The notes under the pieces: generated by a model
Told to the model about the DNA's origin: nothing
Seen by the model: only the letters and a program-made list of their open reading frames with translations
Databases searched by the model: none
Program-made: the position numbers and the translations under genes
Shown: piece after piece, positions 18,071 to 27,613 of the stretch
Position numbering within the stretch: position 1 is the first letter of the stretch
Layout: each line of letters begins with the position of its first letter
Assembly (NCBI GenBank): GCA_965199555.1
Contig: CBDASJ010000029.1
Coordinates: 12,357 to 76,356, forward strand
Direction of reading: 5' to 3'
Origin: Acetobacteraceae bacterium
Lineage (GTDB): Bacteria; Pseudomonadota; Alphaproteobacteria; Acetobacterales; Acetobacteraceae
Length of the DNA: 64,000 nucleotides

Positions 18071-18407
18071 GGGCTTCGACACGAAGGACCGCATCCTGTT
18101 CGTGGTGGACGGGTTCTCCGCGACCCATCACCACCGGCCCGGGCATTGCGGCCTGACCGCGGGTGAACAGCCGATCCCGGATACGGAGATGATGAAGATC
18201 ATAAACGAACTCGCCCTGCAATGGACGCGCTACACCGATGCCGCTACGACCTTCGCCGACCTCGACGAATTGCTGACCCTGTTGCGGCCGCGCTTCATCG
18301 CGCCCGCCCATGGTGCCGTCATCGACCGGTCCGACCTCATGATCCCGTTGATGAAGCGTGCCATGTGCGGAGAGGAGGCCGGCGCGCTGGACCGGGCGGC
18401 GGCTTGA
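18048..18407 (+). pseudogene. 5'-truncated paralog of the MBL-fold gene at 24922..25740
   Basis: GFDTKDRILFVVDGFSATHHHRPGHCGLTAGEQPIPDTEMMKIINELALQWTRYTDAATTFADLDELLTLLRPRFIAPAHGAVID aligns with WAFDTTERTLFVSDAFAFLHYHEAQRCDFLASEQPPPDVAMIKYFNERAMYWTRHTDVSASFADLDEMLRVLDPALIATGHGGVVD. An in-frame stop lies at 18045-18047. Confidence 0.65.
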
Positions 18408-18996
18408 GCGCCGCCGCATCGCTGGATCGGGGCTCGCGTTCGATTACGCTTGCGGATGGTGCGGTGTTCGCGACCGCCGGGTTCGTCCATACCGAGCGGC
18501 CGACATCGTGGATCGATCCGCTTCTATCCGGCTTCCTCGCCACGTCTTGCCATGTCCTGCGTGCCATCGAGGTGCTGCCGACCACGCTTCGCGTGCTGCC
18601 GAAGCAGCATTTGTATGAGCGGAAAACCCGCACGCTGTTCGGTTCGGACACGTGGGGCTTTGTTCCCCAGGCGACGGACATTGCGATGGAATCGTCTGGC
18701 ATCGGGATGAGCGCCTATCCGTTTCCGCCGTCGCGCGGCCCCTCCTGCACCGGTTTGAGTGGCTGGCCGGCGTGGACACGTCGCCGATGCCGGCCGAAAT
18801 CCATGAATTGCTAACCCGCCCGATCGACCGGATCTGCAGCAGCTACGGTTGCGTCATCGAAGGCAGCGCGTTGGTGACGACGGTGTTGCAGAACACGATC
18901 GCCGCCTTGCAGGCGCTGTCCCAAACGGCCCGGGTCGGCAGGATGGACAAGCTCGTCCGCGACAGGATCGCGAACGCGGTGAACGTTGCGCGCTGA
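18408..18996 (+). pseudogene. Decayed paralog of the MBL-fold partner gene at 25745..26689 (internal deletion plus frameshift)
   Basis: ...ADGAVFATAGFVHTERPTSWIDPLLSGFLATSCHVLR | AIEVLPTTLRVLPKQHLYERKTRTLFGSDTWGFVP is followed, after a frameshift near 18705-18720, by ...ARPLLHRFEWLAGVDTSPMPAEIHELLTRPIDRICSSYGCVIEG. This matches the intact gene except for about 108 missing residues. Confidence 0.6.
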
Positions 18997-19800
18997 TCAG
19001 CAGGGCAAGGCGTTGGGCAGGCAATGCAGTGCCCGCAACCCGCCCGGGATGCGGCCGATCTGCTTGCTCAACGCCCCTGCATGGGCCGACAAGCCGGCCA
19101 CCAGTTCTGCCAGATTGTCCAGCGACATGCCGATGCCTGCAACACTGAGGGATGCGATCACCTCGCCGCCTTCCATCCGCACCGGCACCGCGACGGCCCT
19201 GACACCCTCGAAGAATTCGCCGCTGTCCAAGGCGTAGCCGCAATGCTGGACGTTGCGGATTTCCTCGGCAAGCCGGCTCGGCGCGACGATCGTCTTGGAT
19301 GTCAGCGCCACGAAGCCCGCACTGAACACGTACTCGTCCAGCTTGCGCGGATGCAGCGCCGCCAGCATGACCTTGCCGGGTGCAGTGCAGTACGCATCGT
19401 AATGCGCGCCAACCGCGGCGTGCCGCTTCGGGTCCTCGCAGGTATCCGCGCCGGCGACGATGTAGATCTCGGTGCCGTCCAGCACGCTCAGCCGGACGCA
19501 CAAGTCGCGCATGGTCAGCATCTGGCGCAACCGCAGATCCACCACCTCCTGCAAGGCGCGCCGGGCCCGGACGCCTTGGTCGTGCAGGGCCAGCAGGCGT
19601 GGCCCCAGCGTGTAGGCCCCGCCCCGATCCACGCTGACCGCCCCGGCGCCCTGCAACGTGCGGAGCAGGCGGTGGGTGGTGGCGATCGACAGGTTGGCGG
19701 TTGCGGCCGCCGCCCGCAGCGTCACGCCGCCCGGCGTGTTGCACACGACGTCGACAAGGTCGAGCGCCTTGAGGATCGACTTGTTGGTGGGGGTCGTCAT
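18997..19800 (-). CDS. IclR family transcriptional regulator
   Basis: The N-terminal wHTH SILKALDLVDVV...GVTLRAAAATANLSIATTHRLLRTL and the C-terminal effector domain are of typical IclR length (267 aa). Confidence 0.9.
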   Translation of the reverse strand: MTTPTNKSILKALDLVDVVCNTPGGVTLRAAAATANLSIATTHRLLRTLQGAGAVSVDRGGAYTLGPRLLALHDQGVRARRALQEVVDLRLRQMLTMRDLCVRLSVLDGTEIYIVAGADTCEDPKRHAAVGAHYDAYCTAPGKVMLAALHPRKLDEYVFSAGFVALTSKTIVAPSRLAEEIRNVQHCGYALDSGEFFEGVRAVAVPVRMEGGEVIASLSVAGIGMSLDNLAELVAGLSAHAGALSKQIGRIPGGLRALHCLPNALPC

Positions 19801-19895: not shown

Positions 19896-21830
19896 TCAGT
19901 GCAGGAAAATCGTGGAGATTCCGGGCACGGCGGCAATGACGACCACGCCCAGGGCCAGCACCGCGAGGTAGGGCCAGATCCTGGCCATCCCGGCGGCAGG
20001 GTCGATCCGGCTGATCGCACAGGCCTGATAGTAGCCAATACCGAAGGGCGGCGTGTACAACCCAACGCCCATCGAGAGCACCGCCACGATCGCGTACTGC
20101 ACCTCGTGGATGCCCAGGCTGCGAGCGATCGGGAACAGCATCGGGCCGAACACCACGATGCCGGGAATGCCTTCCAGGAGGCTGCCGGACACCAGGAAGA
20201 CGCAGATGGAGATCGTCCAGAAGCTGAGCTTGCCACCGGGCATGGTGGTGATGCTTTGCGCCAGGTCCTGGGAAAAGCCGGTCTGGGTCAGTGCCCAGGA
20301 CACGGCGTTGGCGGCGGCGAAGATCACCATGATGGCGCCGGCCAACGACGCCGTATCCTTCAGCACGGCATAGGCTCGACGCCAATCGGTCCAGCGGTAA
20401 ACCACCAGCCCGGCCACGACGGTGTAAAGGACGCCGATCGTCGCCACCTCCGTCGCGGTGGCAACCCCCTCCACGACGGCGGTTCGGATCAGGATCGGCA
20501 GCAGCAACCCGGGAGTGGCCATGACCAGTGCCGCCGCGGCCATGCGCCAGGACGCGCGCGGCGGCAAGGTGATCTCCTGGTTGGAGCGGGCGCGGGCGAG
20601 CACGCAGGTCATCAGCGCCAGCACAAGCGCCGGCAGCAGCCCGGCGGTGAACAGGCCGGAAATCGACACCCCGGTGACGGCGCCGACGGTGATCAGCACC
20701 AGGCTGGGCGGGATCGTCTCACTCATCGAGCTGGACGCCGCCAGCAAGGACACCAGCTCCCCATCCGGGATGCCACGGCGGCGCATTTCCGGCACCAGCG
20801 CCGGCGCCACCGCGGCCATGTCGGCCGCTTTGGCCCCGGAGATGCCGGAGATGAGATACATGGCGCCCAGCAGCACGTAGGACAGCCCACCGCGCAGATG
20901 GCCGATCAGGGTGGACAGGAACGCGATCAGGGTACGCGCCATGCCGGTCGCCTCGAACAACAGGCCCAGCACGATGAACATCGGGATTGCCAACAGGATC
21001 AGCGGGGACAATCCAGCCTCGAACCGGCTGGCGACGATGGACAGCGGGACCGACGAGTTCCATTGCAGGAACGCCAGCGTCGACAAGCCGAAGGCAAAGG
21101 CAATGGGCATGCCCAGCGCCACACAAATACCCCCGAGCCCGATGAAGAACAGCACTAGGTCATACGTGCCATCGGTGGCCCAGCTCACGCCATAGCACAG
21201 GGCGACGCCGGCGGCCGTCAGCGCGGCCGCGAAGCCGACCAGAAGCCAGCCGCGTTCGTTGCCGGTCGCGATGACCCGGCACAGGCAGAACACCGCCATC
21301 AGCCCCAGCCCGGCGGGAAGCGCCGCGGCCTTCCACCCGTCGGACAGACCCAAGATCGGGTTCACCGCCCCGGCCGCATCCGCCACGAAGCCGAAGGAGA
21401 AGATGAACAGCAACACAAGGAAAACCAGGCTCAGTGTTTGCGCCACCAGTTCGCGTACGACGTTGTTCCGCGGTGACAGGCGCTTCTCCGCCAGCGTCAA
21501 GCGCAGGTGCTGTTGCCTGGCCAAGGCCACCACGGAGCCCAACATCGACAGCCACACGAACAACAGCGACGCGATGTCGTCCGACCAGGTGAACGGCCGG
21601 CCAAACACGTAGCGTGATATCACGCCGGCGAGCAGGATCAGCAGTTCGGCCAACACGATGATTGCCGCGACGTGCTCGATCGCCGAAACCAGCACTCGCC
21701 CGGCCCCGGCCGTGAAGCGGGCGGTGGCACCATGGTCGCCCCGGGTTCGGCGGACGTCCGCGGCGGTGCCGAGCGGGCCCGCCAAAACGACCCCGCTATC
21801 CAACTGCTCGTTGTGCGGCAGCAGGTTCAT
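19896..21830 (-). CDS. TRAP transporter fused small/large permease (DctQ-DctM fusion)
   Basis: ATG 21830 is preceded by GAGGGGGA. About 644 aa, polytopic. The N-terminal roughly 190 aa are DctQ-like, followed by a DctM-like 12-TM body. Confidence 0.88.
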   Translation of the reverse strand: MNLLPHNEQLDSGVVLAGPLGTAADVRRTRGDHGATARFTAGAGRVLVSAIEHVAAIIVLAELLILLAGVISRYVFGRPFTWSDDIASLLFVWLSMLGSVVALARQQHLRLTLAEKRLSPRNNVVRELVAQTLSLVFLVLLFIFSFGFVADAAGAVNPILGLSDGWKAAALPAGLGLMAVFCLCRVIATGNERGWLLVGFAAALTAAGVALCYGVSWATDGTYDLVLFFIGLGGICVALGMPIAFAFGLSTLAFLQWNSSVPLSIVASRFEAGLSPLILLAIPMFIVLGLLFEATGMARTLIAFLSTLIGHLRGGLSYVLLGAMYLISGISGAKAADMAAVAPALVPEMRRRGIPDGELVSLLAASSSMSETIPPSLVLITVGAVTGVSISGLFTAGLLPALVLALMTCVLARARSNQEITLPPRASWRMAAAALVMATPGLLLPILIRTAVVEGVATATEVATIGVLYTVVAGLVVYRWTDWRRAYAVLKDTASLAGAIMVIFAAANAVSWALTQTGFSQDLAQSITTMPGGKLSFWTISICVFLVSGSLLEGIPGIVVFGPMLFPIARSLGIHEVQYAIVAVLSMGVGLYTPPFGIGYYQACAISRIDPAAGMARIWPYLAVLALGVVVIAAVPGISTIFLH

Positions 21831-22089
21831 GTTCGATTCCCCCTCAGAACGACGCGAGCACCCCCACAAGGGTCAAGACCGTCCTGACGGCGTTAAGAGA
21901 AGCCGCGCACCAGGCAACGATCAAGACCGCAGATGGCAGTTCTCAAATTGTGAGATGAGCCAGCGCGGCGGCTTGCAGTCGGGTCACAGGCAACCCTAGC
22001 TTAAGTCCAGAAGAAATGAGCACCAGCCAGGCTTCGGTTCTCCGAAGAACATCGGCTGAATAGTTCGGTTACGGGACGGAGGAAGCATA

Positions 22090-23109
22090 ATGGCTGTCAT
22101 GACCAGGCGCGGCTTTTCCACGGCGATGACGGCGGGTGCTCTCACCCTGGCCTCGATCGGCCGGGCTTCGGCCGCCGCATTCAATTTCAAGTTGGCTACG
22201 GACATGCCGCCGGCGGACCCAATGACGGCTCGGCTGACCGAGGCGGCCAAGGCCATCGAACAGGAAAGCGGCGGCCGGCTCGCCATCCGCGTGTTTCCCA
22301 GCAGCCAACTCGGCACGATTTCCGAGGAGCTGAACCAGGTGCGCAGTGGCGCCTTGGAACTGTATTGCTGCGGCTACGGCAACCAGATCCCGGTGGCGCC
22401 GCTGGCCGGGATCAACTCGCTCGCCTTTGCCTGGTCCGGCTACGACAAGATCTGGCCAGCCATGGACGGGGAGTTGGGTGCTTTCCTGGCCGCTCAGGTC
22501 GCAAAGACCGGAACCATCCAGCACGTCAGCAAGGCGTTCAACGTCGGCTTCCGGCAGACCACCTCCGGCCACACGCCGATCCATACGCCGGATGACCTCA
22601 AGGGCTTTAAGATACGCGTGCCGCCGGCGCCGATCCTGGCAACGCTGTTCAGCGAGCTCGGGGCCTCGCCGGTCAACCTGAGCCTGGGGGAGCTGTATCC
22701 CGCCTTGCAAACCGGGTTGGTCGAAGGCTCCGACAACCCGCTGTGGACCCTGGCGGCCATGCGGATCTACGAGGTGCAGAAGCACATCACCCTGACGAAC
22801 CATAGCTGGGACGCGTTCGTGGTGGTGGCCAATAGCCGCGCCTGGGCCCGGTTGCCCGAGGATTTGCAGCAACTCGCCAGCAAGCATTTCAGCCTTGCCG
22901 CGGTCGCGCAGCGCGAAGACGTGGCCAAGCTGGAAGTCGAAGCGAATGCGAAGCTGCAGGCCAACGGCATGACGATCTTCCAGCCCCCGGCGGACCTGTT
23001 CCGCACCGCGCTGAGCAAGACGGATTACTACCAGAACTGGCGTCAGAAAATCGGGCCTGAGGGATGGGCGGTGCTGCAACGCACGGCCGGTCTTCAAGGC
23101 CTGGCCTGA
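22090..23109 (+). CDS. TRAP transporter substrate-binding protein (DctP family)
   Basis: Signal peptide MAVMTRRGFSTAMTAGALTLASIGRASA. The DctP-like pattern ...RLAIRVFPSSQLGT... is present. The gene is divergent from the TRAP permease. Confidence 0.88.
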   Translation: MAVMTRRGFSTAMTAGALTLASIGRASAAAFNFKLATDMPPADPMTARLTEAAKAIEQESGGRLAIRVFPSSQLGTISEELNQVRSGALELYCCGYGNQIPVAPLAGINSLAFAWSGYDKIWPAMDGELGAFLAAQVAKTGTIQHVSKAFNVGFRQTTSGHTPIHTPDDLKGFKIRVPPAPILATLFSELGASPVNLSLGELYPALQTGLVEGSDNPLWTLAAMRIYEVQKHITLTNHSWDAFVVVANSRAWARLPEDLQQLASKHFSLAAVAQREDVAKLEVEANAKLQANGMTIFQPPADLFRTALSKTDYYQNWRQKIGPEGWAVLQRTAGLQGLA

Positions 23110-23132: not shown

Positions 23133-24167
23133 ATGTATGATGATTATTTCGTTTTCGACAATGTGGTGCACATGTTCGACAACCGTCCGTCGAACAAGCT
23201 TGGCGAGGAAGGCCGCAAGATCATCGACTCGATCTGGGGTGCGGCCAAGCTGTTCTCCAACGACACCTACATCGCCCACCCGACCTTCGGCGACGACTAC
23301 ATCACGACGGAGGAAGCCCACCGCGTGCTGTTCGAGGAGTCGGACACCGACATGGTGATCGCCCAGACCGTGCCGCTGATGGGCTGGTTCAAGGAAGGCT
23401 TCTCCCCCGCCCGCGCCAACCACGCCCTGGCCGCCGCCTATCCCGACCGCGTCGTGTTCTGCGGCGGCGTGGACCCGCTGTACCACGGCTCGCGCGGCGC
23501 GCTGGACGAGATGCAGCGCCAGAAGGACGAGTGGAACGCCCGCTCCTTCAAGTTCTACCAGTCCCAGTTGAACGGCAGCCTGTGGCGCGTCGACGACCGG
23601 CACATCGCCTACCCGCTGTGGGAGAAGTGCCTGGAGCTCGGCGTCACCAACGTGCAGTTCCACAAGGGCCTGCCGTTCGGCCGCCAGTTGCTTGACCACC
23701 AGCGGCCCAACGACATCGAGCAGGCGGCCATCGACTTCCCCGACCTGACCTTCATCATCCACCATTTGGGCATGCCGTTCATCGACGACACGATCAACAT
23801 CGCGTCGCGCCACCCCAACGTGTGGCTGGCCTTGTCGGCCTGGATCAACATCTATCCCATCCAGCCCCGGGTCGCGCTGGACATGCTGGGCAAGTGCCTG
23901 ATGCTGGTCGGCGAGGACCGGCTGCTTTACGGCTCCGAAGCCTTCGTGTGGCCGAGCCTGCAGCCCTACATCAAGGCGTTCGCGGACATGACCATGCCGG
24001 AAGAGCTGCAGGAAGGCTACGGCTACCCGCAGATCACCCGGGAGATGAAGCGCAAGATCTTCGGCGAGAACCAGGCCCGCCTGCTGGGCATCGACATCGA
24101 GAAGAAGAAGCGCGAGCTGGCACCCCGCGCCCGCGCGTCGCAGCCCGAGCTGCAGGCGGCCAAGTGA
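23133..24167 (+). CDS. Amidohydrolase_2 (PF04909-like) family protein
   Basis: ATG 23133 is preceded by GAAGGAG. TIM-barrel amidohydrolase-like pattern ...FIIHHLGMPFIDD...LLYGSEAFVWP...IFGENQARLLGI. The N-terminal metal motif is atypical (FDNVVHMF). Confidence 0.75.
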   Translation: MYDDYFVFDNVVHMFDNRPSNKLGEEGRKIIDSIWGAAKLFSNDTYIAHPTFGDDYITTEEAHRVLFEESDTDMVIAQTVPLMGWFKEGFSPARANHALAAAYPDRVVFCGGVDPLYHGSRGALDEMQRQKDEWNARSFKFYQSQLNGSLWRVDDRHIAYPLWEKCLELGVTNVQFHKGLPFGRQLLDHQRPNDIEQAAIDFPDLTFIIHHLGMPFIDDTINIASRHPNVWLALSAWINIYPIQPRVALDMLGKCLMLVGEDRLLYGSEAFVWPSLQPYIKAFADMTMPEELQEGYGYPQITREMKRKIFGENQARLLGIDIEKKKRELAPRARASQPELQAAK

Positions 24168-24463
24168 GCGGCGCGCAGGACCTCGGCGCCGGCATCACGG
24201 ACGCGCTGGACGGCGTGCGGCGGCGCCTGCGCTCGCATGCCGGCGACGTGGAGGTCGTGTCGGTGTCGGAGGCGGGCGAGGTCACGCTCGCCTTCACCGG
24301 CAACTGCATCAAGTGCCCGGCCCAGGCCATGACCTACGGCGCCAGCATCCTGCCGGTCGTCGAACGCCTGCCCGGCGTCAGCGCCGTGTCGATGCGCAAC
24401 CTGTCCGTGTCGGACGCGGCGGTGCGGCGCATCCGCACCATGTTCAGCGACAAGGTTGCATAA
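24164..24463 (+). CDS. NifU C-terminal-domain-like protein (CxxC)
   Basis: GTG 24164 overlaps the upstream TGA (GTGA). LRSHAGDVEVVSVSEAGEVTLAFTGNCIKCPAQAMTYGASI matches the NifU-C / Nfu pattern. Confidence 0.7.
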   Translation: MSGAQDLGAGITDALDGVRRRLRSHAGDVEVVSVSEAGEVTLAFTGNCIKCPAQAMTYGASILPVVERLPGVSAVSMRNLSVSDAAVRRIRTMFSDKVA

Positions 24464-24464
24464 G

Positions 24465-24896
24465 ATGGCAAGTTACGCAGTGCGCATGATCGACGCCGCC
24501 ACCGCGATCAAGGCGACGGTGGCGGCGACGGAAAAGGCCAAGGAGATCGGCATCGGCATCTGTGCCGCCGTGTACGACAGCTCCTCCCAGCTCAAGGCGT
24601 TCATCCGCATGGACGGAGCGCCGATGCTGTCGGCGCCGATCGCGGAAGACAAGGCGCACACCTCGGCCAGCTTCCGCTCGCCAACGCACGCCCTGTTCGA
24701 GTGGATCTCGAAAGACCCGCCGCTGCTGCACGGGATCACCCAGTATCCGCGCTTCATCGTGTTCGGCGGCGGCTACCCGATCACCGAAGCCGGCGAGCTG
24801 ATCGGCTCCATCGGCGTCAGCGGCGGACACTACAGCCAGGACATGGAATGCGCCAAAGCCGCACTCACCGCAATCAACGCAGAAATCCCAGATTAG
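24465..24896 (+). CDS. GlcG/HbpS-like (DUF336) protein
   Basis: ATG 24465 lies 1 nt after the upstream stop. ...FGGGYPITEAGELIGSIGVSGGHYSQDMECAKAAL is the typical DUF336 C-terminal signature. Confidence 0.75.
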   Translation: MASYAVRMIDAATAIKATVAATEKAKEIGIGICAAVYDSSSQLKAFIRMDGAPMLSAPIAEDKAHTSASFRSPTHALFEWISKDPPLLHGITQYPRFIVFGGGYPITEAGELIGSIGVSGGHYSQDMECAKAALTAINAEIPD

Positions 24897-24921: not shown

Positions 24922-25740
24922 ATGGCCGAAACCCATCGTCATCCGCCCAGCGGCCACTTCCCACGCGTCCTCAGCCCCAGTCTGCTGTGGACGGGCGGGT
25001 GCCTGAACATCACCTACCAGGACCGCGTCGTGCATTCGCACGTGTGCGCCTACCTGGTCGTCGGGTCCGAGAAGACCATGCTGGTCGATACCGGCAACGC
25101 ACCCGACTGGCCGCACATGGAACATGACGTCGAGCGTTTCCTGGACGGGCGACCGCTCGACTACATCTTCCCGACCCACGGTGAGCTTCCGCATTGCGGA
25201 TTGCTCACCCAGTGGCTGTCGAAATACCCGGACGCGCTCGCCGTCGGCGCGCTGCGCGACTTCCCGCTCTACTACCCGCAATACGCCCACCGCATGCGCA
25301 ACGTCGCGGCCGGCGACGCGATTGATTTGGGTGACCGCCGCATCGTGTTCATTCCGCCGGTTTGGCGCGACCTGCGCGACACGCTGTGGGCGTTCGACAC
25401 CACGGAGCGGACGCTGTTCGTGTCCGACGCATTCGCCTTCCTGCACTACCACGAGGCGCAGCGTTGCGATTTCCTGGCCAGTGAGCAGCCACCGCCGGAC
25501 GTGGCGATGATCAAGTATTTCAACGAGCGGGCGATGTACTGGACGCGGCACACCGACGTCTCCGCAAGCTTCGCCGACCTCGACGAAATGCTGCGCGTGC
25601 TCGACCCGGCGTTGATCGCCACCGGGCATGGCGGCGTGGTGGACGTGCACAGCGCCATGGTGCCCCTGGTCAAGGCCGGGATGGACGTGCGTGTGCCCGC
25701 AGTGCCGCCGCCGCTCGCGGTCGCCGTGGCGGCCGAGTGA
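24922..25740 (+). CDS. MBL-fold protein resembling the flavodiiron-protein core domain (H-x-E-x-x-H variant)
   Basis: ...CAYLVVGSEKTMLVDTGNA...LDYIFPTHGELPHCG...TLFVSDAFAF...LIATGHGGVV. The order and spacing resemble the FDP/ODP-type MBL domain rather than a hydrolase HxHxDH. Confidence 0.68.
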   Translation: MAETHRHPPSGHFPRVLSPSLLWTGGCLNITYQDRVVHSHVCAYLVVGSEKTMLVDTGNAPDWPHMEHDVERFLDGRPLDYIFPTHGELPHCGLLTQWLSKYPDALAVGALRDFPLYYPQYAHRMRNVAAGDAIDLGDRRIVFIPPVWRDLRDTLWAFDTTERTLFVSDAFAFLHYHEAQRCDFLASEQPPPDVAMIKYFNERAMYWTRHTDVSASFADLDEMLRVLDPALIATGHGGVVDVHSAMVPLVKAGMDVRVPAVPPPLAVAVAAE

Positions 25741-25744
25741 ACCC

Positions 25745-26689
25745 GTGGTCCCCGCCTCCCTGAGCAGTTCGGTGGCCGCCATCGTGCCCGACGCGATCTA
25801 CGCAGTGGGCGGCGGCGTCCCGGCGGACGTTTCGGTGAGTTGGATCCCCCAGGGGCTTGGGGGATGGATGCCGGTTCAGTGCTTCGTCTTGCGGGACGGG
25901 GGCGAGGCCGTGGTGATGGACAGCGGCCTGGGCGTGCATCGCGCCGTCGTCGAAATCGGGCTGAGCCAGCTTCTGGACGGCCATCCGCCGCCGCGCGCGC
26001 TGATCAGCCGGTGGGAGCCGGACTCCATGGTCAACCTGCCCTGGTTGATCGAGCGGTTCGGCGTCCGCGACGTGCTGTCCTATGGCGGCATCAACCCGCT
26101 GGATTTCTTCGAACGGTTCGAGGAAGCAACCGCCACCGCGCAGGTCGAGGCAGCCGCCGGTTCGGCAAAGCTGGTGCCGATCGGCTTGGGCGAGATGGTC
26201 CATGTCGGCGCGCTTCGCATCGAGGTGGTGCCGGTCAGCCTGCGGCTGCTGCTGGCCGTCTGGTTCTACGAGCACACCACCGGCTCCCTATTCACCGCGG
26301 ACTCATTCGGCTTCCTGCCCAACCCGGCACGCGCCGCCCCGTTCGCCATTCGGCCAGGCGTGGAGATGCTGTCGCCCGCCGTGCTGCACCGCAGCCTCGA
26401 AACCAAGTTCGACTGGCTCATCGGCGCATACAGCGACGCGCTGATCGCCGATTTGGAAGCCTTGCACGCCCGTCTGCCCATCCAGCGCGTGTGCCCCAGC
26501 TTCGGTGGCGTCATCGAAGGCAAGGACAACGTGGCCCGACTGTTCCGCTCCACGGCGACCGCGCTGCACCGATTGGCGGCGGAGCGCCCGCCCAGCCCGC
26601 TTGCCGGCTTCGACTGGCAACACGCCCTTGCAGCCGAAGCCGTCGTGGACCTCGGGAGTCCAGACCGTATGCTGCGCTCCCTGCCTTAA
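25745..26689 (+). CDS. Degenerate MBL-fold partner protein (metal-binding His residues lost)
   Basis: GTG 25745 lies 4 nt after the upstream stop. It has the same fold landmarks as the preceding gene (...QCFVLRDGGEAVVMDSG...ISRWEPDS...SLFTADSFGF...CPSFGGVIEG), with Trp, Ser and Phe in place of the His ligands. Confidence 0.6.
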   Translation: MVPASLSSSVAAIVPDAIYAVGGGVPADVSVSWIPQGLGGWMPVQCFVLRDGGEAVVMDSGLGVHRAVVEIGLSQLLDGHPPPRALISRWEPDSMVNLPWLIERFGVRDVLSYGGINPLDFFERFEEATATAQVEAAAGSAKLVPIGLGEMVHVGALRIEVVPVSLRLLLAVWFYEHTTGSLFTADSFGFLPNPARAAPFAIRPGVEMLSPAVLHRSLETKFDWLIGAYSDALIADLEALHARLPIQRVCPSFGGVIEGKDNVARLFRSTATALHRLAAERPPSPLAGFDWQHALAAEAVVDLGSPDRMLRSLP

Positions 26690-26734: not shown

Positions 26735-27613
26735 TCAGGCCGGCTTGTAGGCGCTGCCGTCTTCCACACGCTGCGGATCACCGACGTAGCGGCCGTCGCG
26801 CGGAACCGCGATCTTCCCGAAATCGCGGGCCAACATGTGCAGTGCGTCCCGCATCGCGGAGCCGTGCAGGGCGCGGCCGTGGCCGGTGACGACCACCTCC
26901 GGCTCCAGCCCGGCCAGCGTGTGCACCGACCGCTCCGCCGCCTGCCAATCATGGGTGAAGTACTTCGGCGGCCCATGGATTTCGGGCGCTTGCGTGGCAC
27001 TGGCATAGGCGCTCTCCGCCCCGACGGTGACGAAGGCGTCGCCGGCGATCAGCGTGCGGTCGTCCGCCCGCCACAGCGACACGTGGCCGACCGAGTGCCC
27101 GGGCGTGTGCAGCCAACGCCAGCCCGGCAGTTCCGGGATGCTGCCGTCCATCGGCAGGTCGCGTAGCCGGCTGCCGACATCTACCGGGCTGCGCGGGTAA
27201 AGCGGCGACAACAACGCCATCGCCCCGCCGCCGACGGTGGGGTCCGCTTTCGGGTAGGAGGCCGAGCCATCAAGGTACGGACGCTCCAGCTTGTGGGCAT
27301 AGACCGGCACGTTCCACTGCTCCGCCAGCGTTTCCAGCGCGCCCACGTGGTCGAAATGCCCGTGCGTCAGCACGATGGCCCGGGGCGGCGCACCCGCGCC
27401 GAACCTGTCCGCGGCGGCACCGGCGATGCGCCCTGCCATACCGGGAATGCCGGTGTCCACCAGCACCCAATCGGGTTGGCCCGGCTGGCCCACATACACC
27501 ACGTTCACAAACGCCAGCCGGCGGTATGCCACGCCGGGGGCAGCCTCCAACGTGCCGTCTTCGGCCTCAGCCGCAGCGACGCTCCCAGACGCGATGGGCA
27601 CCTGTTCTGTCAT
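26735..27613 (-). CDS. MBL-fold metallo-hydrolase (canonical HxHxDH)
   Basis: VLVDTGIPG...AIVLTHGHFDHVGAL...HTPGHSVGH; 292 aa. Confidence 0.85.
   Translation of the reverse strand: MTEQVPIASGSVAAAEAEDGTLEAAPGVAYRRLAFVNVVYVGQPGQPDWVLVDTGIPGMAGRIAGAAADRFGAGAPPRAIVLTHGHFDHVGALETLAEQWNVPVYAHKLERPYLDGSASYPKADPTVGGGAMALLSPLYPRSPVDVGSRLRDLPMDGSIPELPGWRWLHTPGHSVGHVSLWRADDRTLIAGDAFVTVGAESAYASATQAPEIHGPPKYFTHDWQAAERSVHTLAGLEPEVVVTGHGRALHGSAMRDALHMLARDFGKIAVPRDGRYVGDPQRVEDGSAYKPA

Follow-up and report, generated by a model that had tools for sequence, protein, structure and literature searches.

A conserved pair of flavodiiron-like core proteins, one with a remodelled metal site and one without histidine ligands, encoded in bacterial catabolic gene clusters

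Introduction

Two adjacent genes on a 64,000-nucleotide stretch of an Acetobacteraceae genome (GenBank assembly GCA_965199555.1, contig CBDASJ010000029.1, positions 12,357 to 76,356; the whole stretch is called the window here, and its own numbering is used) encode proteins with the metallo-beta-lactamase (MBL)-like core of the flavodiiron proteins (FDPs). They most likely specify an obligate two-subunit heteromer, in which MBL-A (272 aa; plus strand, 24922–25740) would be the catalytic, di-metal subunit and MBL-B (314 aa; plus strand, 25745–26689) a pseudo-subunit. A ligand-bearing and a ligand-poor paralog occur together in every surveyed locus in which both genes are readable. We lean towards a complex that activates O2, as an oxygenase or an oxidase, because its hosts are aerobes, its closest relatives form the redox FDP/ODP clade, its predicted ligands are rich in carboxylates, and its genes lie in oxidative-catabolic contexts.

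FDP-type cores have been known so far as O2 or NO reductases and, in one instance (ODP), as a sensor. The novelty lies in a two-subunit version that is conserved, has no flavin and carries a fixed set of non-canonical ligands, located inside degradation clusters of aerobic Alphaproteobacteria and Actinobacteria. The module points to unexplored O2 chemistry on the flavodiiron scaffold, and may supply the missing step in several orphan pathways of acid or aromatic catabolism. It would also offer a clear case, in bacteria, of a metalloenzyme that keeps a ligand-less paralog as its obligate partner, much like the Flv1/Flv3 pair, which is itself still unexplained. Cultured carriers exist, namely Ancylobacter pratisalsi, Bosea psychrotolerans and Rhodococcus species.

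MBL-A: a remodelled flavodiiron-type site

The translation of MBL-A contains T85-H86-G87-E88-L89-P90-H91, V147-W-R-D150, L-F-V-S-D169-A-F and A-T-G-H236-G-G, and that of MBL-B, from the GTG at 25745, contains R89-W90-E91-P92-D93-S94, L-F-T-A-D186-S-F and C250-P-S-F253-G-G; all the residues and residue numbers given for the two proteins in an initial annotation of this DNA are borne out. MBL-A matches the Pfam ODP family PF19583 with a score of 44.4 bits (E 2.3e-11) across model positions 3–194 of 194, above the curated gathering threshold of 27.2 bits, and is a formal member of that family. On its own it also matches Moorella FprA (1ycf) with an E-value of 3.5e-8, while a profile built from 110 homologs (33–88% identity) aligns over the whole MBL core with the F420H2 oxidase FprA (2ohh; E 4.5e-22), as well as with Escherichia coli flavorubredoxin, Moorella FprA and rubredoxin:oxygen oxidoreductase (ROO). 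The AlphaFold2 model of MBL-A has a single domain with a mean predicted local distance difference test score (pLDDT) of 93.2, and Foldseek places 2ohh first among its structural relatives (E 3.8e-16, template modelling (TM) score 0.68), with FDP cores leading the list and ODP following them.

These profile and fold comparisons place the residues singled out in the annotation in the FDP ligand columns, as it had proposed. At the seven positions that supply metal ligands in FDPs (the first His, Glu, Asp and second His of H-x-E-x-D-H, then the middle His, the bridging Asp and the last His), MBL-A has respectively H86, E88, P90, H91, D150, D169 and H236. Five of the seven columns are identical (H, E, H, D, H), and the canonical seven-ligand set is incomplete. 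The annotation had described MBL-A as lacking the Asp and one His; the replacement of the Asp by P90 and the absence of the middle His both hold, but the middle column is not empty, since it is occupied by an invariant aspartate, D150, which is a plausible candidate metal ligand.

Conservation across the 110 homologs argues that this modified site is maintained. H86, E88, H91, D150, D169, H177, E188 and H236 are invariant, as are R15, W23, W156 and W207; near-invariant are P90 and H175 (109 homologs each), H40 (106), C27 (105), H38 and C182 (104 each). The column of the FDP second-sphere Tyr is also kept in the family (Y32). Since both departures from the FDP set, P90 and D150, are fixed family-wide and are accompanied by the additional conserved residues H175, H177 and E188, the site of MBL-A is remodelled, not decayed, and the word "degeneration", under which the annotation had placed it, does not fit.

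C27 and C182 are both present in 101 of the 110 homologs, and C27, H38, H40, C182, E188 and R15 have no counterpart among the FDP ligands. Judged from their conservation, the extra Cys, His and Glu residues might form an additional metal or Fe-S site, a disulfide, or contacts with the substrate.

MBL-B: a distant paralog without histidine ligands

MBL-B gives no significant match in Pfam (Lactamase_B, E 0.033, is below the cut-off, and PF19583 is not matched) and no sequence match in the PDB, although its counterparts in one other locus (L007) are annotated with PF19583. A single-sequence BLASTP comparison with MBL-A finds just a 51-residue match (E 4e-5), and the relationship emerges from comparison of the two family profiles by hhalign, which aligns 226 columns at 18% identity with a probability of 99.3% (E 4e-20). 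The AlphaFold2 model of MBL-B, again a single domain (pLDDT 83), finds FDP cores as its best Foldseek matches, headed by ROO (1e5d; E 1e-11, TM score 0.62). Taken together, profile and model indicate that MBL-B is a true, very distant paralog of MBL-A with the same predicted fold.

In the hhalign alignment the seven ligand columns of MBL-B hold R89, E91, D93, S94, L168, D186 and F253, in the same order as above, so that three of the seven (E91, D93 and D186) are identical to FDPs; H175 and H177 of MBL-A fall opposite P192 and P194. The loss of every His ligand with retention of the carboxylates, as originally described, is therefore upheld. Neither chain has the classical MBL hydrolase motif H-x-H-x-D-H, the corresponding runs being H-G-E-L-P-H in MBL-A and R-W-E-P-D-S in MBL-B, and here too the annotation was right, as it was in pointing to that motif (THGHFDH) in the neighbour at 26735–27613. 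Its description of the two sites as complementary is true of one column only, in which MBL-B keeps the Asp that MBL-A has lost. In the FDP fold each chain builds its own pocket, and it is not obvious how one subunit could provide its partner with a ligand.

The B family comprises 641 clusters at 50% identity, of which 261 have E-values of 1e-30 or lower. Among 136 full-length representatives the signature (S/T)-R89-x-E91-x-D93 is near-invariant (R89 in 135, E91 in 127, D93 in 123 with Glu in a further 11), and D186 is present in 134. Position 94 is mainly Cys, Ser or Thr (Cys in 55), and His is not among its seven commonest residues; hydrophobic residues prevail in the middle-ligand column; the column of the last His holds His in 63, Tyr in 23, and Phe and Arg in 18 each. 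Further residues of the MBL-B signature lie in K221-F-D-W224 and C250-P, and R167, K221, D223, R248 and E258 are additional invariant charged positions. The annotation stood to fall if the highlighted residues varied among orthologs; those of MBL-A are conserved, and so are the carboxylates of MBL-B. On this conservation MBL-B appears to be a stable, His-less partner that has kept carboxylates and acquired an Arg in a former metal-ligand column.

The two genes are paired and jointly constrained

Thirty loci were surveyed in which both genes are readable, part of the survey being a search for related loci seeded with 26 of the closer A sequences. Each encodes one HxExPH protein and one (S/T)RxExD protein, usually from adjacent genes with overlapping stop and start codons, with A first in Alphaproteobacteria and B first in Actinobacteria. 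In the window the GTG start of MBL-B lies 4 nt past the stop codon of MBL-A; a recorded protein of 314 aa, 99% identical, has the same start. Natural fusions occur in both orders: four representatives of 555–580 aa are B-A fusions (P0192, P0196, P0200 and P0216), and one Rhizobiaceae locus encodes an A-B fusion of 582 aa (L023, 6953–8701). Three of the B-A fusions retain the last His in their B half (as APTHG or APAHG), and the remaining one has APSRG there.

MBL-B changes faster than MBL-A. Acetobacteraceae homologs are 82% (A) and 65% (B) identical to the window proteins, and Ancylobacter homologs 76% and 51%. The ratio of non-synonymous to synonymous substitution rates (dN/dS) is about 0.07–0.13 for A and 0.15–0.25 for B, rough values because dS is near saturation, and dN of B is 2–3.4 times that of A. 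Both proteins are thus under purifying selection, MBL-B evolving the faster, and a higher dN is as expected for a constrained, non-catalytic partner.

Comparison with known systems

MBL-A and MBL-B share the MBL-like core with FDPs (2ohh, 1ycf, ROO 1e5d and flavorubredoxin 4d02), and FDP cores are the top Foldseek matches of both, but Pfam searches and AlphaFold2 models agree that both lack the C-terminal flavodoxin/flavin mononucleotide (FMN) domain. In place of the Asp and middle His of FDPs, MBL-A has P90 and D150, with H175 (109 of 110), H177 and E188 in addition; and whereas FDPs occur in contexts of O2 or NO detoxification, the A/B proteins are a probable heteromeric pair found in catabolic operons of aerobes. 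A search of the two proteins for the flavodoxin domain and for the canonical ligand set found neither feature, and so MBL-A and MBL-B are not FDPs in the strict sense.

The closest precedent for the arrangement is provided by the cyanobacterial pairs Flv1/Flv3 and Flv2/Flv4, in each of which a subunit with canonical ligands is paired with one that lacks them (PMC4390876, PMC7785958, PMC6616624). The Flv1/Flv2 class has Arg, Lys, Ser or Asn in place of canonical ligands, the Flv1 core is reported to be unable to bind metal, the Flv genes come in pairs, and in vivo neither partner is dispensable (PMC4390876, PMC6616624, PMC7785958). The likeness to A/B extends to paired genes for one paralog with intact ligands and another with substitutions that include Arg or Lys. 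The Flv proteins, which are class C FDPs, differ in that they retain their flavodoxin and their flavin-reductase domains and serve photoprotection by reducing O2, while A and B are bare cores set in the catabolism of imported acids; and the ligand-bearing Flv partner is canonical, while MBL-A is not. The idea of a catalytic subunit paired with a His-less paralog, put forward in the initial annotation, gains from the paired genes, the fusions and the purifying selection on both, but the arrangement is not as unusual as was supposed.

ODP of Thermotoga maritima (6qrq, 6qnm; PF19583) resembles MBL-A in that it consists of an FDP-like core alone (about 250 aa) and has no flavin domain. MBL-A matches it with a Foldseek E-value of 9e-11 and a profile E-value of 1e-6, which is weaker than its match to FDPs. 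ODP is a chemotaxis sensor encoded together with receptor genes, whereas A/B is a putative heteromeric module in catabolic clusters; no che gene lies beside the pair in the window or in the surveyed loci, save in one locus (L008), where che genes are found about 4 kb away.

CmlA, to our knowledge the only MBL-fold diiron oxygenase, shows that such a site can act as a true oxygenase (a beta-hydroxylase) on an organic substrate. Its substrates are amino acids bound to a carrier protein, and it carries an additional domain at the N terminus. The A/B proteins have no detectable sequence match to it: CmlA is absent from the PDB matches of the A profile (E up to 1) and from the top 50 Foldseek matches. 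The combination of an active MBL-fold subunit with an inactive paralog devoid of metal ligands is also seen in CPSF-73/CPSF-100 and IntS11/IntS9, which are eukaryotic beta-CASP zinc nucleases of another MBL subclass and unrelated in function to A/B.

Distribution and genomic contexts

The pair is found in Alphaproteobacteria (Acetobacteraceae, Bosea, Ancylobacter, Rhizobiaceae, Beijerinckiaceae and Salipiger) and in Actinobacteria (Rhodococcus, Tomitella, Pseudonocardia, Saccharomonospora, Microbacterium and Solirubrobacterales), all of which belong to typically aerobic groups. Within the same genus, 3 of 25 genomes carry it, the window genome included; none of 16 genomes that represent other families of the class does, and among 400 further genomes sampled evenly across the class it occurs in 1. 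Such rarity and patchiness are in keeping with an accessory catabolic module that moves horizontally.

The neighbours of the pair vary from locus to locus but are always catabolic. Transporters are of the tripartite ATP-independent periplasmic (TRAP) or TctC carboxylate type, and GntR or IclR regulators are present in many loci. Among the non-redox enzymes are Amidohydro_2 and Amidohydro_1/3 proteins, alpha/beta hydrolases, arylmalonate-decarboxylase-like proteins, aldolases of the HpcH/HpaI or dihydrodipicolinate synthase (DHDPS) type, BKACE, PrpD, and an HMG-CoA-lyase-like protein with a CoA-transferase. The redox neighbours are FAD_binding_2 flavoproteins, molybdenum cofactor (MoCo) hydroxylases and a luciferase-like monooxygenase with a flavin reductase. 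Beijerinckiaceae loci encode an extradiol dioxygenase with a meta-cleavage-type hydrolase, and an aldolase also accompanies this set. In Actinobacteria the neighbours include DUF2889, an esterase and a Baeyer-Villiger monooxygenase; a conserved cluster in Rhodococcus and Tomitella (L025, L027, L028 and L038) encodes, in this order, DUF2889, B, A, an esterase of alpha/beta-hydrolase fold, a Baeyer-Villiger-type flavin monooxygenase of about 645 aa, and GntR. The B protein of this last cluster keeps the last His (APAHG or APGHG).

A proposed complex and its chemistry

In the model outlined here, the identity and number of the metals, the geometry of the heteromer, the O2 chemistry and the substrate are what we infer from homology, predicted structure and gene context. 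The complex would consist of two ancient paralogs of the FDP core without the flavodoxin domain. By homology, metal site 1 of MBL-A would be formed by H86, E88 and D150 with the bridging D169, that is, the FDP set with one His replaced by Asp. Metal site 2 would be formed by H91, D169 and H236; its fourth FDP ligand, an Asp, has become P90, which would leave a 2-His-1-carboxylate-like site with vacant coordination positions. H175, H177 or E188 could occupy them, as could a carboxylate or hydroxy-acid substrate that chelates the metal. In MBL-B, Arg89 would stand in the place of the first His, probably salt-bridged to E91, D93 and D186, and the subunit would stabilise, cap or gate MBL-A with no catalysis of its own. 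The substrate is suggested to be an organic acid, imported in the case of the window by the adjacent TRAP system. A NifU-like protein might serve as iron or electron donor in operons of the window type; without a constant reductase, turnover could be driven by the substrate, as in MIOX and PhnZ, or electron donors could be flexible.

It is tempting to go further, although only tentatively, and to regard A/B as a new class of oxygenase on the flavodiiron scaffold, heteromeric and flavin-free, with an Fe/Fe or Mn/Fe centre. Replacement of Asp by Pro might here open one metal to direct chelation by hydroxy- or carboxy-acids, turnover might be substrate-driven in the manner of MIOX and PhnZ with no dedicated reductase, and the Arg-plugged MBL-B might gate or shape the pocket. 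In a stronger variant of this proposal, C27, C182, H38 and H40 would form a third site, for a metal or an Fe-S cluster, with the NifU-like protein to serve it.

Several observations weigh against an O2-activating complex with a catalytically silent MBL-B. No dedicated reductase stands consistently beside the pair in the surveyed loci, so that chemistry of the monooxygenase type would need a donor encoded elsewhere. Searches of the available literature found no paper or experiment on the bacterial A/B family. About 46% of the wider B family retains the last His, and E91, D93 and D186 of MBL-B could still bind a hard cation. Finally, a binuclear site of His and carboxylate ligands can also hydrolyse, and amidohydrolases and esterases are frequent neighbours.

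This last point leads to the alternative that survives best, though we consider it unlikely: that A/B catalyses a non-redox reaction, as a lactonase, esterase, hydratase or decarboxylase in whose binuclear site a pair of Fe, Mn or Zn ions acts as Lewis acid, a mode of action shared by many enzymes of MBL fold. The MBL fold is mostly hydrolytic, no constant reductase partner accompanies the pair, and its neighbours include not only Amidohydro_2, Amidohydro_1/3 and alpha/beta hydrolase proteins but also Baeyer-Villiger monooxygenases, which make esters or lactones. Yet MBL-A lacks HxHxDH and is nearest, in sequence and in predicted fold, to the redox FDP/ODP clade and not to lactonases; the replacement of His by Glu in motif 2, together with a further exchange of His for Asp, is typical of redox sites that stabilise Fe(III) (PMC7785958); and several loci already contain dedicated hydrolases.

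It is improbable that both subunits are active, with the carboxylate-only site of MBL-B (E91, D93 and D186) binding Mn2+, Mg2+ or Ca2+ for a second step or for substrate binding in a bifunctional enzyme. The near-invariance of these three residues across the 136 representatives would be accounted for in this way, as would the last His in 63 and the Cys at position 94 in 55 of them, and the many other invariant charged residues (R167, K221, D223, R248 and E258). However, a cation would face electrostatic competition from the Arg89 found in a ligand column of 135 of the 136, hydrophobic residues fill the middle ligand column, and dN of B exceeds that of A to the extent given above. There is also the precedent of Flv1, with Arg/Lys substitutions, whose crystallised core is reported to be unable to bind metal (PMC6616624, PMC7785958).

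There is even less to commend the idea that A/B is an FDP-type scavenger of O2, NO or H2O2, shielding O2-sensitive enzymes of the operon with electrons from an adjoining redox protein (NifU-like or a flavoprotein). Scavenging is the sole demonstrated chemistry of the closest solved relatives, and redox proteins are frequent neighbours; but there is no flavodoxin/FMN domain, the hosts are aerobes, and one iron ligand has been changed to Pro and another to Asp. Moreover the pair is built, often by overlap of start and stop codons, into catabolic clusters that are diverse and specific to particular substrates, and its extreme patchiness is ill-suited to a general detoxifier. An ODP-like sensor of O2 or Fe(II), regulating the operon or chemotaxis, would agree with the Pfam assignment of MBL-A and with the GntR or IclR regulators adjacent in many loci, but is very hard to credit given a pair that lies in mid-operon between enzymes and transporters, with no methyl-accepting chemotaxis protein (MCP) or che gene adjoining it in the window, and given that no heteromer of ODP with a ligand-less paralog is known.

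Gene organisation in the window

The window operon is a tightly packed set of plus-strand genes that encode DctP, an Amidohydro_2 protein, a NifU-like protein, an HbpS-like protein, MBL-A and MBL-B. Upstream it is flanked by a minus-strand gene for an IclR-family regulator (18997–19800; PF09339 and PF01614) and, divergent from the operon, by an open reading frame (ORF) for a fused TRAP membrane component, DctQM (minus strand, 19896–21869), whose Ancylobacter counterpart has PF04290 and PF06808. The first gene of the operon encodes the TRAP solute-binding protein DctP (22090–23109), for which the best PDB match is 4oan (E 1.8e-81). The DctP orthologs of at least 66% identity are on contigs that also bear the A/B pair, while the next group is at 50% identity or below, and two relatives from a group at about 45% identity have no adjoining pair. 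Transfer of the ligand of 4oan, presumably a modelled 2-acetolactate, to the window DctP was rejected, since 4oan lies beyond this gap and the two distant group members are unlinked to A/B.

The Amidohydro_2-family enzyme that follows (23133–24167; PF04909, E 6.5e-31) is of decarboxylase, lactonase or hydratase type. Its closest PDB match is the uncharacterised BB4693 (3irs; E 2.8e-10), and an NCBIfam search gave no match; the enzyme was accordingly rejected as a functional guide. Its stop codon overlaps the GTG start (GTGA) of the gene for a small NifU C-terminal-like protein of the Nfu type with a CxxC motif (24164–24463; PF01106, E 1.3e-11), which is separated by 1 nt from the gene for the HbpS/GlcG-like (DUF336) protein (24465–24896; PF03928, E 5e-34). 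Of the 30 loci, 6 have the HbpS-like gene upstream of A, and it is solely in this operon type (6/30) that NifU-like and HbpS-like genes stand beside the pair. The NifU-like gene is kept in the Ancylobacter and Bosea operons, and its product is a possible donor of Fe, Fe-S or electrons to MBL-A in operons of this type. Identification of the NifU-like, HbpS-like, MBL-A and MBL-B proteins with a "four-component" 6-hydroxypicolinate monooxygenase, PicB, was rejected, as PicB is a Rieske oxygenase. Beyond MBL-B, and convergent to the operon, is the minus-strand gene for the MBL-fold hydrolase mentioned above (26735–27613; Lactamase_B, E 4e-36). No gene like it was seen adjoining the pair in the other loci examined, and it is probably unrelated to A/B.

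Further copies of the pair in the same genome

A second intact pair is present on another contig of the same genome (C8, 235910–237468; locus L016, 9905–11556), with THGELPH in A2 and TRREAD in B2. Immediately upstream of it lie a gene for a 500-aa FAD-binding flavoprotein and a branched-chain-type ATP-binding cassette (ABC) transporter, and it precedes a gene for a 577-aa D-aminoacylase-like amidohydrolase, a catabolic context unlike that of the window. The window itself contains a decayed third copy at 18072–18966, which abuts the IclR gene. Its A remnant (18072–18365) covers residues 157–254 only and is 49% identical to MBL-A. Its B remnant lacks residues ~51–158, including the R-x-E-x-D motif, so that 18461–18562 is joined directly to 18566–18670, and it suffers a frame shift before the C-terminal part (18709–18921).

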